DNA of 64,000 nucleotides. Origin: a phage. The notes under the pieces are model-generated. The model was not told where the DNA came from. It did no database searches and was given only the letters and a program-made list of their open reading frames with translations. Made by a program: the position numbers and the translations under genes. Positions 19,301-23,470 of the stretch are shown piece after piece. Every line of letters starts with the position of its first letter. The stretch's first letter is position 1. The stretch is taken from sequence record PZ583739.1; one strand, 5' to 3'.

Positions 19301-19493
19301 AGGTTTTCCATGGTAATTGGATTCGAGTTTGTTTTACAGTAAGCTCGACCTCGGGATTCAATTTTTTCAATCGGAGACATTCTTCCCAGGCGTCTGATTC
19401 GTTACTGAACGTATAGAAACGGCCGTCAATAACTACAATCTTTTTCTGATTGGTAATATTAACAATGGCCCAGGTATCGCAATAATAGCCCAT
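19293..19493 (-). CDS. hypothetical protein
   Basis: 66 aa ORF immediately upstream of pseT. Confidence 0.4.
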   Translation of the reverse strand: MGYYCDTWAIVNITNQKKIVVIDGRFYTFSNESDAWEECLRLKKLNPEVELTVKQTRIQLPWKTYE

Positions 19494-20398
19494 TAAAAGT
19501 CCCCATGGTTAACTTGCCAGCATTCAACACCAATATGGCGCCACATCTCAACGACTTGAGTGCGGTCGTCGACGGCTAATTTCACATCGTAATGTGGTGC
19601 AATTCTGTTCCAGAAAATTTCTTCCTTCACAATATCGTCTTTGCGGTCGTCACCTTGCTCGCGCTGGATATGAGTTTCCCAAGGAATTCCATACTTATCC
19701 ATCCAGGCTTTGGTGGCTTCATAATATTCCGTTGGGTTTTCTTTAGTACCAGATTCACGACCAGATACTGTAATAATACTATACCCTGCGTGATGAAGCA
19801 TTTTCAGGTACTGAACAACCATTTTGTTTGGAGCATCAGTAGACAGTTTTGCAAGCTCAAATGGTCCGCGAGCCACATGCAAAGCCAATGTTCCATCCAG
19901 GTCAAAGATAATGGCTTTTGGTTGGCCAGGAGTTCCTTTATAAACCGGAAGACCAAGGAAGGTACGCATATGACCATACATGGAACGCAGAACATCAATT
20001 GGTACCGCTTTTGGACCACGGCGATTGTTGCGTTTAACTAACTCAATCCATGGAACATCAAATACTTTATATTCAACTTTCCAGCCGTATTCTTTAGCAA
20101 AAGTTTCCCACGCCAGACGGCGTTCAGGATTCAGGTTAGTGTCTGAAATAATTACACCTTTAACAGAATCACCGCCATACAAAATAACCTTTGCTGCATC
20201 AAACTGCATACAGGTTACGATGCCTTCTTTCTTCTTGGTGTATTTGTATTCATCACGTTCTTCATGACCCATAATGGATTGACGATAATCATCGCGGTTA
20301 ATGTTAAAATAACCAGGGTTCTTAGCGATGAATTCACGAGTCCATGTGCTCTTACCAGAACCAGGGCAACCTACAGTCAGAATAATTTTCTTCATCAT
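19493..20398 (-). CDS. pseT: polynucleotide 5'-kinase/3'-phosphatase
   Basis: 301 aa (same as T4 Pnk); Walker [10 protein letters not shown] near N-terminus; HAD-like phosphatase motif [10 protein letters not shown] in the C-terminal half. Confidence 0.9.
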
Positions 20399-20715
20399 TT
20401 AATTCCCAACAGAGTTTTGAGGAACTGAATGCGTAATTCAACACGCCCTTCATTTAATTCAGCCACTGCTTTATTGCTTGACTTGCGGCGAGTATTGGCA
20501 GAGATAAACATAATCAAATGCTCTTTAAGTTCCCGCATATCAACACCTTGAGCTTTCGCCGCTTTACGTAGAGCTTTACCTGCATCATCTAAGGCTTTTG
20601 CAGGGTCTTCATCATTCATTACCAATCCACGGTCTAAATCCAAATATACTGCGCCATGGCATGAATCAATATAATTGTCTGAACACTTGATGTAATTCTC
20701 TAATAATTCTTTCAT
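20395..20715 (-). CDS. hypothetical protein (pseT.1-like)
   Basis: Track ORF starts upstream of the promoter; ATG at 20713-20715 with SD GGGGA lies downstream of the early promoter at 20744-20777; 106 aa. Confidence 0.45.
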
Positions 20716-20743
20716 AATAATTTCCCCAATTTTATAATCCGTA

Positions 20744-20777
20744 GGAGCATTATACTCTGCTCCCATGAGTTTGTACA
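20744..20777 (-). promoter_or_regulatory. early promoter embedded in stem-loop (PeSL-like)
   Basis: Minus strand TGTACA, 17 nt, TATAAT; inverted repeat ggagca/tgctcc brackets the -10 box. Confidence 0.5.
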
Positions 20778-20881
20778 CTACTTTCCAAAAAGACCTTGAA
20801 CACATAAAGTGGCCGCAATTCCAAAACAAAAACAGAATGCACCAAATCTAACAATATCCCAACCAAGGCTACAGTTCTCTA

Positions 20882-21172
20882 TCATTTACAACGTTCCTCT
20901 TTTAGTTCAGAACGATAATAACATAACATACCTTTTTGGTCATGTACATATCTTTTTACATCATTCATCCAAATCCGGAATTCTTGCGATGCTTCAAAAG
21001 GCATACCAACCCAGGCTTGACCCTCAATTACCTTAACTTCCCATTGCTGTTTGTAATCAGCCAATGCAACAGGCCAATTGGGATGAACTTGGATTGTGGG
21101 CTCCACAACGGGCTTCTGGGCACATGAAACGAGTCCAATAGCCAAACATACTGCCATGATAGATTTCATCAT
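20882..21172 (-). CDS. o-spanin (outer-membrane lipoprotein spanin subunit; pseT.2-like)
   Basis: 96 aa; signal peptide with lipobox LVSC; 4-nt overlap with the upstream i-spanin gene. Confidence 0.7.
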   Translation of the reverse strand: MMKSIMAVCLAIGLVSCAQKPVVEPTIQVHPNWPVALADYKQQWEVKVIEGQAWVGMPFEASQEFRIWMNDVKRYVHDQKGMLCYYRSELKEERCK

Positions 21173-21522
21173 TTGGTGAGCTCCTGGAAGTCCCGGGCGA
21201 ACTTATCAAAAGACTGATTAATCTGTTTTTCAACTAATTTAGGCTTCGCTACCACAACCTTAGTACGTTTTGCATCTGCACGGAGTTTATCATTTTCCTT
21301 CTGCAGAAGTTCAACATATTCCTGCCGCTCCTGGTCAAGGAGATTAATTTGATTAATTTGGTCTTTTACTGATTGCAGATTTTTCGCGTTATCTTCTGCA
21401 ACTTTGGTGACCGCAGCCACCTCTGTCTTGAGATTATCTACTTTTGCTTTTAGATAGAAACCACTACCAGCAGTTACTACCAGGGCGAGCATAAGCCCTG
21501 CAGTGAGATTACTTATTTGCAT
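21169..21522 (-). CDS. i-spanin (inner-membrane spanin subunit; pseT.3-like)
   Basis: 117 aa; N-terminal transmembrane segment LTAGLMLALVVTAGSGFYL followed by a long coiled-coil-like region. Confidence 0.7.
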   Translation of the reverse strand: MQISNLTAGLMLALVVTAGSGFYLKAKVDNLKTEVAAVTKVAEDNAKNLQSVKDQINQINLLDQERQEYVELLQKENDKLRADAKRTKVVVAKPKLVEKQINQSFDKFARDFQELTK

Positions 21523-22016
21523 AACTTGATGATTACCTCAACAATATCATCCTGGGATAAACCATTCAGGAGGATGTGATTTGTACTGTCAGACGCTGAA
21601 ATGCGGAACTGATTACCAACTTCATCCGCCATATCATCCTGGGTTAACACTGGGTGTTTAATTCCCAGGCGGTGTTGAAGTGTCAGGGGTTCAACCACAA
21701 CATAACAAACACATCCATTGATATGTACATTAGGTTGGGTCTGGTTAATGAACACTTCTGCATCATATTTAACCAAATGGTTCTTTAAGAATTCAACCAT
21801 TTCAGGAACAGATTCATGCAGTGCTTCTTTCCGCTCTTCTGATTTTTTATCGCGATATTCTTTTTGTTTCGCCTTCAACTTTTTGTTAGAGGCGAGTTTT
21901 TTCCGCAGGTCAGTCATAAGACCAATTTTCTTGGTCCCTTTATAGACATAAATTCCGTCATGACGGTCACCATATTCATTGACAATCATTTCATTTGAAA
22001 TCAGTTGCATATCCAT
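21513..22016 (-). CDS. alc: Alc-like protein (assignment by position and size only)
   Basis: ATG at 22014-22016 gives 167 aa (T4 Alc is 167 aa); lies between rnlA and the spanins as T4 alc does. Confidence 0.4.
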   Translation of the reverse strand: MDMQLISNEMIVNEYGDRHDGIYVYKGTKKIGLMTDLRKKLASNKKLKAKQKEYRDKKSEERKEALHESVPEMVEFLKNHLVKYDAEVFINQTQPNVHINGCVCYVVVEPLTLQHRLGIKHPVLTQDDMADEVGNQFRISASDSTNHILLNGLSQDDIVEVIIKLCK

Positions 22017-22029
22017 AATATTTTCCTCA

Positions 22030-22263
22030 TTAGTAGCGGTTATAACCCCGGGGACCAAAAGAGTTGGCACCCAGGCGCTCATCTTTCTTTTTGGCTCTTG
22101 CTCTAAACCCGGAATCACCTGTTTGAGCTTTCAGTTCTTTTAACAATTTGGCCTTTAGGTCAGTAATGAAACCAATCCGGCGGTCTCCCTTATAGACATA
22201 GATTCCATCATTTCTGTCACCATATGCCTTTGTAACTCTGTCATTTGTAATTAAGTTTAACAT
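22030..22263 (-). CDS. short paralog of the Alc-like N-terminus
   Basis: 77 aa; MLNLITNDRVTKAYGDRNDGIYVYKGDRRIGFITDLKAKL parallels MDMQLISNEMIVNEYGDRHDGIYVYKGTKKIGLMTDLRKKL of the downstream gene. Confidence 0.45.
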   Translation of the reverse strand: MLNLITNDRVTKAYGDRNDGIYVYKGDRRIGFITDLKAKLLKELKAQTGDSGFRARAKKKDERLGANSFGPRGYNRY

Positions 22264-22294
22264 GTTTTGGTCCTCATCAGTAGTTGATGGAACC

Positions 22295-22332
22295 ATTATG
22301 TATAGAAAGAAGGGGCTTGTACACCCCTTTTT
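22295..22332 (-). promoter_or_regulatory. terminator hairpin overlapping early promoter (PeSL-like)
   Basis: Minus strand gggg-tgtacaag-cccc hairpin with T-run after the rnlA stop; TGTACA, 17 nt, CATAAT, then leader caactactgatgaggaccaaaacATG. Confidence 0.5.
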
Positions 22333-22333
22333 A

Positions 22334-23470
22334 TTATTCAGGAAGGATTACTTCCGCCTGGTAGTCTAACGGAATGTAAAGTTTATGATTTTTAAGGAAA
22401 ACTTTATTGATTTGAGCAATCGTTTGTTCAGTTTCCTGTGGGCGTTGATAGGTGTTCATTAATACGGAGAACAATCCCGGATATGGTTTACATAACTCTT
22501 GACCTTTAATCGCAAACTCGCGACGGTCTTTTCCTGCTAACTGTTTTTGTGCATCAAGCAACAGTCCAAGAGTGTTGGACAGATAATCCAGATGTGTTGC
22601 AGTAAAGGCAGTAACTTTTTCACGAGCATAAGTATCGCCAGTAAACATGGCAATAACATCATCCGCGCCGCCAGCAACAACAACTTCAAACAGTCGCTCA
22701 TTATTATTAATGGAGTCTTTAGTATGATGCAGAGCACAATACCATTCTGTTTTCATCTTGAACTTCTGACCGTTAGCCATCTCATAGACGAAGCCTTCAA
22801 TCTCTTTCATACCGCGAACATTCTCAATGGTTGCCGGGTCATATGCTTCAACCAGGAAAGGACGAAGCGCTGCATCTTTGAACAGCTCCTGATAAGGAAT
22901 ATATTCACCAGTTTCATTATGACGAACGTTCAGTAAAATCAGGTCACGTTCCTGGTAAGGCAAAACAATGCGGTTGGTCGGTGCAACATATTCCATGTTG
23001 CATGTATAACCAGCTTCAGTGATTTCAGTCACACGAGCCCTGAATGCACTGCGATGTTCTTGTTTAAACACCTGCAAGGATTCAGCTGCTTGGGAGCTTT
23101 TGATTGACCCTTTGGATTTAAAGGCGATATTGGTCTGGTCCATATAAGTGGAAACCAAACTACCATCAGCTTTTGCAGTAACCAGGACAACTTCATCAAG
23201 GTTAAGGTCCATGGTCATTGGATTCTCACCCAGATTAAAGAATTTTTCCATAGGACGAGCAGCAATGCGAACTGGACCATTGTCATCCATTTCAAACATA
23301 ATGCCACGGCACTCCAGCGCATCATCAAGGAGCCAATCACTATAGGAAGCATAGTTATAGCTAAAGATGCGGAACTTAGTTTCAAATGGAGAAACAAAAT
23401 CCGTATAGAAAAACTTACCTTTATCAGATTCGGCGCAAAGCTTCATTAAGTTATCATATAATTCAATCAT
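22334..23470 (-). CDS. rnlA: RNA ligase 1
   Basis: 378 aa; FRIFSYNYASYSDWLLDDALECRGIMFEMD and KADGSL (adenylation lysine motif) match T4 Rnl1 (gp63). Confidence 0.9.
   Translation of the reverse strand: MIELYDNLMKLCAESDKGKFFYTDFVSPFETKFRIFSYNYASYSDWLLDDALECRGIMFEMDDNGPVRIAARPMEKFFNLGENPMTMDLNLDEVVLVTAKADGSLVSTYMDQTNIAFKSKGSIKSSQAAESLQVFKQEHRSAFRARVTEITEAGYTCNMEYVAPTNRIVLPYQERDLILLNVRHNETGEYIPYQELFKDAALRPFLVEAYDPATIENVRGMKEIEGFVYEMANGQKFKMKTEWYCALHHTKDSINNNERLFEVVVAGGADDVIAMFTGDTYAREKVTAFTATHLDYLSNTLGLLLDAQKQLAGKDRREFAIKGQELCKPYPGLFSVLMNTYQRPQETEQTIAQINKVFLKNHKLYIPLDYQAEVILPE

Follow-up and report, generated by a model that had tools for sequence, protein, structure and literature searches.

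Probable orthologues of the T4 tRNA repair genes and a second Stp allele in a T4-like phage genome

Introduction

Does the joint presence of polynucleotide kinase/phosphatase (Pnk), RNA ligase 1 (Rnl1) and the short peptide Stp in a phage genome indicate that its lineage has faced the host anticodon nuclease PrrC? The question is raised by a stretch of phage DNA of 64,000 nucleotides (nt) (PZ583739.1; this whole stretch is the window in what follows). An earlier note on it had assigned two open reading frames (ORFs) to Pnk and Rnl1, the enzymes that repair tRNA cleaved by PrrC, and a third of 26 codons to Stp, the phage product known to activate PrrC, and had taken the combination to suggest that the lineage has met Prr-type defence. 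We find that the three genes are likely to be orthologues of T4 pseT (pnk), rnlA (gene 63) and stp, and that the T4 mechanism is likely to carry over to them. The trio is already known; it is the textbook T4 system in a close relative. Its co-occurrence is what any T-even genome shows, and it says little on this particular lineage.

T4 Stp is an inhibitor of EcoprrI, a type IC restriction enzyme, and of EcoR124I. When EcoprrI is inhibited in a prr+ cell, PrrC is unmasked and cuts tRNA-Lys 5' of the wobble base. Mutants in pnk or rnlA are restricted on prr+ strains and are suppressed by stp mutations (PMC3014915, PMC1484252, PMC12707154).

Results

We compared positions 19200..23900, which hold both repair genes, to known phages. 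The best megablast matches are T-even phages of the genus Gaprivervirus (vB_EcoM_RZ, 97.5%; DK-13, 97.4%), VR20 and SP18 follow at ~93% identity, and no record identical to this region was found by megablast. By these matches, the source phage is a Gaprivervirus-type member of the Tevenvirinae, a T4-like coliphage.

The ORF assigned to Pnk is confirmed, with Pfam, Protein Data Bank (PDB) and T4 alignments in agreement. The protein matches HAD_PNKP (1.8e-56) and AAA_33 (2e-20) and aligns end to end with T4 polynucleotide kinase (PDB 1ltq, E=1.8e-160). In a global alignment, 77.7% of its residues are identical to T4 Pnk, with 88% identity in the kinase and 66% in the phosphatase domain. The kinase P-loop GxxGxGKS reads GCPGSGKST, and Lys-16, Ser-17, Asp-36, Arg-39, and Arg-127 correspond to T4 K15, S16, D35, R38, and R126, all of which are kept. 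The phosphatase motif DxDxT reads FDLDGTL. Here, D166, D168, T170, S212, K258, and D278 are conserved, and the equivalents of T4 D165, D167, T169, R176, S211, R213, D254, K258, D277, and D278 are all retained. Roles for K15, D35, R126, D165, D167, S211, K258, and D278 have been described for the T4 enzyme (PMC3592404). The ORF opens with ATGATG, which overlaps the stop codon of the gene upstream; as T4 Pnk begins with MKK, the true start could be 20395 rather than 20398. The protein is 100% identical to Pnk of phage DK-13.

The same three lines of evidence agree on Rnl1, whose ORF is likewise confirmed. Pfam finds RNA_lig_T4_1 (6.6e-24) and T4_Rnl1_C (8.3e-41), the latter over its whole profile (positions 1-122/122), and the Rnl1-specific all-helical C-terminal domain is thus present. 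A search against known T4 Rnl1 structures returned PDB entry 2c5u at E=4e-121, and 2C5U, 5TT6 and 9DO4 all at E about 1e-121. Global alignment with T4 Rnl1 gives 52.6% identity, 59% in the nucleotidyltransferase domain and 38% in the C-terminal domain. This overall value does not mark Rnl1 as unusually diverged, a possibility that we rejected because regional values are similar (alc 56%, pseT.3 46%, ndd 61%, gp52 69%). Motif I, KxDG, is present as K100-A-D-G. The protein is also identical to T4 Rnl1 at the equivalents of R54, K75, F77, G102, K119, E159, E227, G228, K240, and K242, which we take to be the essential residues defined by mutagenesis in the Shuman laboratory. It is 100% identical to Rnl1 of phage RZ.

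The 26-codon stp ORF is confirmed by PHROG, BLASTP and gene order. As the earlier note had pointed out, it is too short to appear in the mechanical ORF list, which contains only a TTG-initiated ORF of 39 amino acids (aa) at 50151..50270. The ORF is conserved, and 20 of the 26 residues of the peptide are identical to T4 Stp; BLASTP against T4 Stp, translated from NC_000866, reports 20/25 identities (E=4e-15). The match to phrog_6763, 'activator of host PrrC lysyl-tRNA endonuclease', spans profile positions 1-26/26 (E=2e-19). The gene order ndd, stp, 54-aa membrane ORF, 52.1, gene 52 is equivalent to ndd-stp-ac-52.1-52 in T4. No second stp copy or remnant was found in the window. The peptide recurs with 100% identity in 40 phage records of GenBank, and the same allele occurs in Gaprivervirus phages (CJ20) and in a T4-like IMG/VR contig of 170,523 bp (L022). 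For the three genes, the matches go well beyond chance. Coordinates are collected in Table 1.

Table 1. Features of the window, and Stp-like ORFs of other phages with coordinates in the records named
Feature	Coordinates	Strand	Description
pseT/pnk	19493..20398	-	bifunctional polynucleotide 5'-kinase / 3'-phosphatase; 301 aa (300 aa if start 20395)
phrog_2364 ORF	20395..20715	-	106 aa, function-unassigned family; phrog_2364 E=3e-52; stop overlaps pnk start (ATGA)
Early-promoter-like site	20749..20777	-	TGTACA-17-TATAAT; upstream of phrog_2364 ORF and pnk; scan 10/12; putative
alc	21513..22016	-	inhibitor of host transcription, 167 aa; Pfam ALC 3.6e-48; 55.7% identity to T4 Alc
Short alc paralogue	22030..22263	-	77 aa; Pfam ALC 4.5e-10, profile positions 3-62; phrog_17715 E=1.5e-53
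Terminator-like hairpin	22310..22329	-	directly 3' of rnlA stop; 7-bp stem then CTTTCT (terminator scan)
rnlA (gene 63)	22334..23470	-	RNA ligase 1, 378 aa; start overlaps denA stop (ATGA)
denA	23467..23877	-	endonuclease II, GIY-YIG (Pfam GIY-YIG); 75% identity to T4 DenA; adjoins rnlA upstream as in T4
54-aa predicted membrane ORF	49979..50143	-	phrog_9347 E=2e-26; ac position, 27% identity to T4 Ac
stp	50151..50231	-	26-aa peptide; internal ATG at 50231 of 39-aa TTG ORF
RNA hairpin	50156..50171	-	GGCGUC-UUUG-GACGCC; within stp codons 21-26; followed immediately by GAGG, the ribosome-binding site of the adjacent downstream gene
ndd	50233..50682	-	Pfam Phage_T4_Ndd 1.8e-68; adjoins stp upstream
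Early-promoter-like site	50727..50755	-	TGTACA-17-TATAAT; precedes ndd by about 45 nt; scan 10/12; putative
Stp-like ORF, L024 (OZ035793.1)	42842..42934		outside T-even phages
Stp-like ORF, L028	2474..2581		outside T-even phages
Stp-like ORF, L029	2501..2596		outside T-even phages
Stp-like ORFs, L015, L017, L018, L020, L025, L027			outside T-even phages

Homology, catalytic residues and T4 gene order also support the textbook roles that had been given to the three products, with Pnk healing and Rnl1 sealing PrrC-cut tRNA-Lys and Stp triggering PrrC. What the present analysis supports directly is homology, the integrity of the active sites, the conserved gene order and purifying selection; the biochemical and host-interaction steps are taken over from T4. 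On this model, Stp would probably be made early, with transcription from the promoter-like sequence that precedes ndd and with translation coupled to that of ndd. It would bind and inhibit a type IC restriction enzyme of the host, similar to EcoprrI or EcoR124I. Where the type IC locus also carries prrC, which is the case in few hosts, this inhibition would unmask the anticodon nuclease. The phosphatase domain of Pnk would take off the cyclic phosphate, the kinase domain would phosphorylate the 5' end, Rnl1 would reseal the anticodon loop, and translation would go on. No tRNA genes or Rfam families were found in the whole window, which hence contains no phage tRNA-Lys decoy.

Several points weigh against a complete transfer of the T4 model. 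The C-terminal domain of Rnl1, thought to confer tRNA preference, is the part with only 38% identity to T4 (22334..22710, minus strand, residues about 255-378). No recognisable Shine-Dalgarno sequence precedes stp, either here or in T4. Host prr loci are rare and sporadic (PMC1484252), and the natural hosts of this phage may thus seldom carry one. Finally, a review places the function of Stp in the N-proximal 18 residues, almost absolutely conserved in nine T4-type phages, and most suppressor mutations between residues 4 and 14 (PMC3014915, citing Penner 1995). Three of the six differences between the window peptide and T4 Stp fall into these 18 residues (F12W, Y13H, and N15H; 15/18 identical), and two of these three into the 4-14 hotspot. 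With these three substitutions, PrrC activation by the window allele is an extrapolation.

We then asked what the combination of the three genes says about the history of this phage. The identities and textbook roles stand as the earlier note had them, but the step from joint presence to past exposure of the lineage to Prr-type defence is less secure than the note put it, given the inherited gene order, the broader occurrence of Pnk and Rnl1, their other roles, the primary role of Stp in anti-restriction and its occurrence apart from the repair enzymes, and the variant Stp. It may well be, although we lean slightly the other way, that the trio is inherited T-even content without a specific Prr signal, in which Pnk and Rnl1 are kept for other RNA repair or gp63 roles and Stp as a peptide against type IC restriction. 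The genes lie in T4 order; they thus descend from the T-even ancestor and are not specific to this lineage. Phage records with full-length Pnk number 2081 and those with Rnl1 1555, as compared with 609 for Stp at a coverage of at least 80%. The Pnk and Rnl1 records include Mycobacterium, Streptomyces, Vibrio and Acinetobacter phages as well as jumbo phages, and the repair enzymes thus reach well beyond the Stp/PrrC story. Conversely, a phage with an Stp-like ORF but without detectable Pnk or Rnl1 exists (T145P1, see below).

Other functions that could retain the enzymes are repair against many ribotoxins, processing of the 5' ends of RegB-cut mRNA by Pnk and attachment of tail fibres by Rnl1. 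Rnl1, as gp63, doubles as the tail-fibre attachment protein, and it is annotated as 'tail fiber attachment catalyst'. Pnk is known to process RegB-cut mRNA (PMC3014915), and Stp acts in the first place against type IC restriction (PMC3014915, PMC12707154). Against retention for such functions stands that the sole known conditional-lethal phenotype of T4 pnk and rnlA mutants is seen on prr+ hosts and is suppressed by stp mutations (PMC3014915). Inheritance from a T-even ancestor is in addition compatible with the T4-type roles outlined above, the two not being exclusive.

We investigated the variant Stp in copies of stp that were gathered from IMG/VR with three degenerate DNA patterns and compared codon by codon. 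T-even phages carry two discrete alleles, FYRNN..KTK as in T4 and WHRHN..KLT as in the window (the WH allele), with no intermediate among the T-even copies; a lone N15H variant exists in Drexlerviridae-type copies. The changes are concentrated between codons 12 and 20, several of them as multi-nucleotide codon replacements, and codons 1-11 differ from T4 synonymously only. Two T4-like IMG/VR contigs of 170.5 kb (L019 and L022) contain a WH allele together with a decayed FY-type copy, suggesting allele replacement. Together with the placement of determinants in residues 1-18, with a hotspot at 4-14, in the review cited above, these findings would fit a specificity variant, either a PrrC-escape form that would keep its block on type IC restriction or one tuned to another type I enzyme or Hsd-associated abortive-infection effector. 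We consider this unlikely. The F to W and Y to H changes are fairly conservative, the positions invariant in seven aligned Stp-like peptides (S2, N3, H5, N6, H8, M10, and K18) are intact in the window peptide, and the genome has kept pnk and rnlA intact. In addition, W12, H13, and H15 are also seen in the distant Drexlerviridae peptides and are thus naturally tolerated.

These distant peptides emerged from a tblastn search with the window Stp, which matched 970 phage records, about 360 of them over residues 1-18 only. Among the matches listed, many of the partial ones are to genomes of 44-50 kb. We located Stp-like ORFs in Drexlerviridae siphoviruses (Braunvirinae, Tempevirinae and Webervirus). 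In Veterinaerplatzvirus T145P1 (Drexlerviridae, Braunvirinae), a 30-aa Stp-like ORF lies behind a good Shine-Dalgarno sequence, and tblastn found no match to the window Pnk or Rnl1 in its 45.5-kb genome. Four IMG/VR loci whose surroundings are unlike those of T4 encode a 25-aa peptide with 24/25 residues identical to T4 Stp; three of them come from contigs of 43.6-44.9 kb (L017, L018, and L020) and one from a 4.5-kb fragment (L015). Klebsiella phage RAD2 gp36 (Webervirus) encodes MSKKNPYSTSNYHNEHVMRWHWQKLKERYLARQGK. The window Stp also matches phrog_28068, a function-unassigned family, at 4e-6. In Enterobacter phage N5822 (Tempevirinae; L029), a 31-aa Stp-like ORF is followed, after about 500 bp, by a gene (3087..3623) that is annotated as 'polynucleotide kinase' but consists of a lone HAD_PNKP 3'-phosphatase domain (Pfam 1.1e-20). 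In the literature searched, we found no paper that treats Stp and Drexlerviridae together.

The Drexlerviridae peptides support the notion that Stp may primarily be a mobile anti-restriction peptide, the presence of which would not depend on tRNA repair. The combined proposal that the WH allele (W12, H13, H15, L19, and T20) is functionally distinct and, more broadly, that Stp forms a mobile anti-restriction family shared between T-even phages and Drexlerviridae independently of tRNA repair nevertheless appears improbable to us.

The codon comparison also bears on whether stp is translated at all. Loci retrieved with patterns anchored on codons 10-18 provide an unbiased view of codons 1-9. Intact T-even copies show six synonymous codon variants in this segment (besides the start, codons 2-9) and zero amino-acid changes. 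The second stp copy in L019 and L022 has lost its start (ATG to CGG) and carries F4S, which looks like what is expected of a decaying copy. In these contigs (L019 6163..6560, L022 3800..4182), a WH-type stp and an ac-like gene are followed by a truncated start of 52.1 fused to the FY-type stp. The arrangement looks like a duplicated stp-ac cassette, one copy of which is decaying.

The 3' end of stp can fold into an RNA hairpin. RNAfold assigns -12.8 kcal/mol to a 51-nt stretch with this hairpin and a second downstream stem, as compared with -11.5 for the T4 counterpart. The stem is present in T4, where it carries a UUCG tetraloop, and is kept with a G-U pair in L019. We considered that the C-terminal GVFGR tail is conserved merely as an RNA hairpin, and rejected this: Drexlerviridae copies retain GVFG by synonymous codons that destroy the hairpin, and the Stp tail is thus selected as protein. 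It is in fact extremely unlikely that stp is a chance ORF or non-coding element conserved for its 3' hairpin and not for its peptide; its shortness, the lack of a Shine-Dalgarno sequence and the stable hairpin in codons 21-26 would agree with such a view, but the PHROG family match (E=2e-19), T4 genetics and plasmid expression showing an active peptide (PMC3014915), and the Drexlerviridae copies, which keep GVFG without the hairpin and have good Shine-Dalgarno sequences, speak against it, and the synonymous-only variation in codons 2-9 effectively refutes it at the codon level.

Returning to stp as a translated T4-type gene, we find its ATG at or near the ndd stop. With no Shine-Dalgarno sequence, translational coupling to ndd is the likely mode of initiation, as we infer from this arrangement. 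The early-promoter-like site upstream of ndd could drive transcription of ndd-stp-ac-52.1-52. Expression in T4 is early or delayed-early (PMC3014915), and the early-promoter-like sites in the window fit this. The two sites in Table 1 are near-identical and, when translated, form the 5' ends of mechanical ORFs that read 'VYKLMG(A/S)EYN(A/D)PT'. The recurring pseudo-peptide 'VYKLMG.EYN.PT' in the ORF lists (about 20770 and about 50740) represents translated early-promoter-like sequence.

We compared the gene neighborhoods to T4. The order at pnk is nrdB, denA, rnlA, short alc paralogue, alc, pseT.3, pseT.2, phrog_2364 ORF, pnk, cd.5/cd.4-like in the window and nrdB, denA, rnlA, alc, pseT.3, pseT.2, pseT.1, pseT, cd.5, cd.4 in T4. 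The phrog_2364 ORF occupies the position of pseT.1 yet is unrelated to it (21% identity to T4 PseT.1). Phages RZ and DK-13 (L001 2696..3664) carry an additional 178-aa ORF here, which is missing from the window (20395..20881, minus strand) and accounts for a gap of ~480 bp in the megablast alignment. A Pfam search with the RZ version of this ORF gave no match. The short alc paralogue corresponds to the N-terminal part of Alc only and is located between rnlA and alc; it is not found in T4 and is annotated in RZ, UPEC07 and others. In the ac position, the window has a small membrane protein unrelated in sequence to T4 Ac, other phages with the same stp allele have still different ORFs, and this acridine resistance slot thus appears to be shuffled.

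Discussion

Our analysis finds most use as an annotation note. All close relatives have annotations for both pnk and rnlA. The stp gene is below the length cut-offs of gene callers and is absent from many records, for example that of CJ20; the homologous site in RefSeq VR25 (Gaprivervirus) is annotated as 'activator of host PrrC lysyl-tRNA endonuclease'. Modest additional value lies in the discrete second Stp allele, with changes in an N-terminal segment that was supposed to be invariant, and in the presence of Stp-like peptides in Drexlerviridae.

Comparison with known systems

The window Pnk resembles T4 PseT (1LTQ) in length, in its combination of a P-loop kinase with a DxDxT HAD phosphatase, in its catalytic residues and in its location downstream of alc, pseT.3 and pseT.2. 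It differs in that its phosphatase domain is more diverged than its kinase domain, in a possible additional N-terminal Met and in its upstream neighbor, the unrelated phrog_2364 ORF in place of pseT.1. Rnl1 shares with T4 Rnl1 (gp63, 2C5U/5TT6) the two domains, KxDG and the other essential residues, and the site between denA and alc, whereas motif I is KEDG in T4 and KADG in the window, and the window protein is 4 residues longer.

Stp is identical to its T4 counterpart in length, in residues 1-11 and in the GVFGR tail, and the two genes share the site between ndd and the ORF in the ac position and the 3'-end hairpin. The window allele differs by F12W, Y13H, N15H, T19L, K20T, and Q26P. In the window, 1 nt separates the ndd stop from the stp ATG, whereas the two overlap in T4; the hairpin has a UUUG loop, as compared with UUCG in T4. 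The Drexlerviridae peptides (phrog_28068 and relatives) have in common with Stp the core S-N-[FYH]-H-N-[EG]-H-[VI]-M-[QR]-[FW]-[YHW], some of them with W12, H13 or H15. They range from 25 to 35 aa, some have N-terminal extensions or unrelated C termini, and they reside in an unrelated genomic context.

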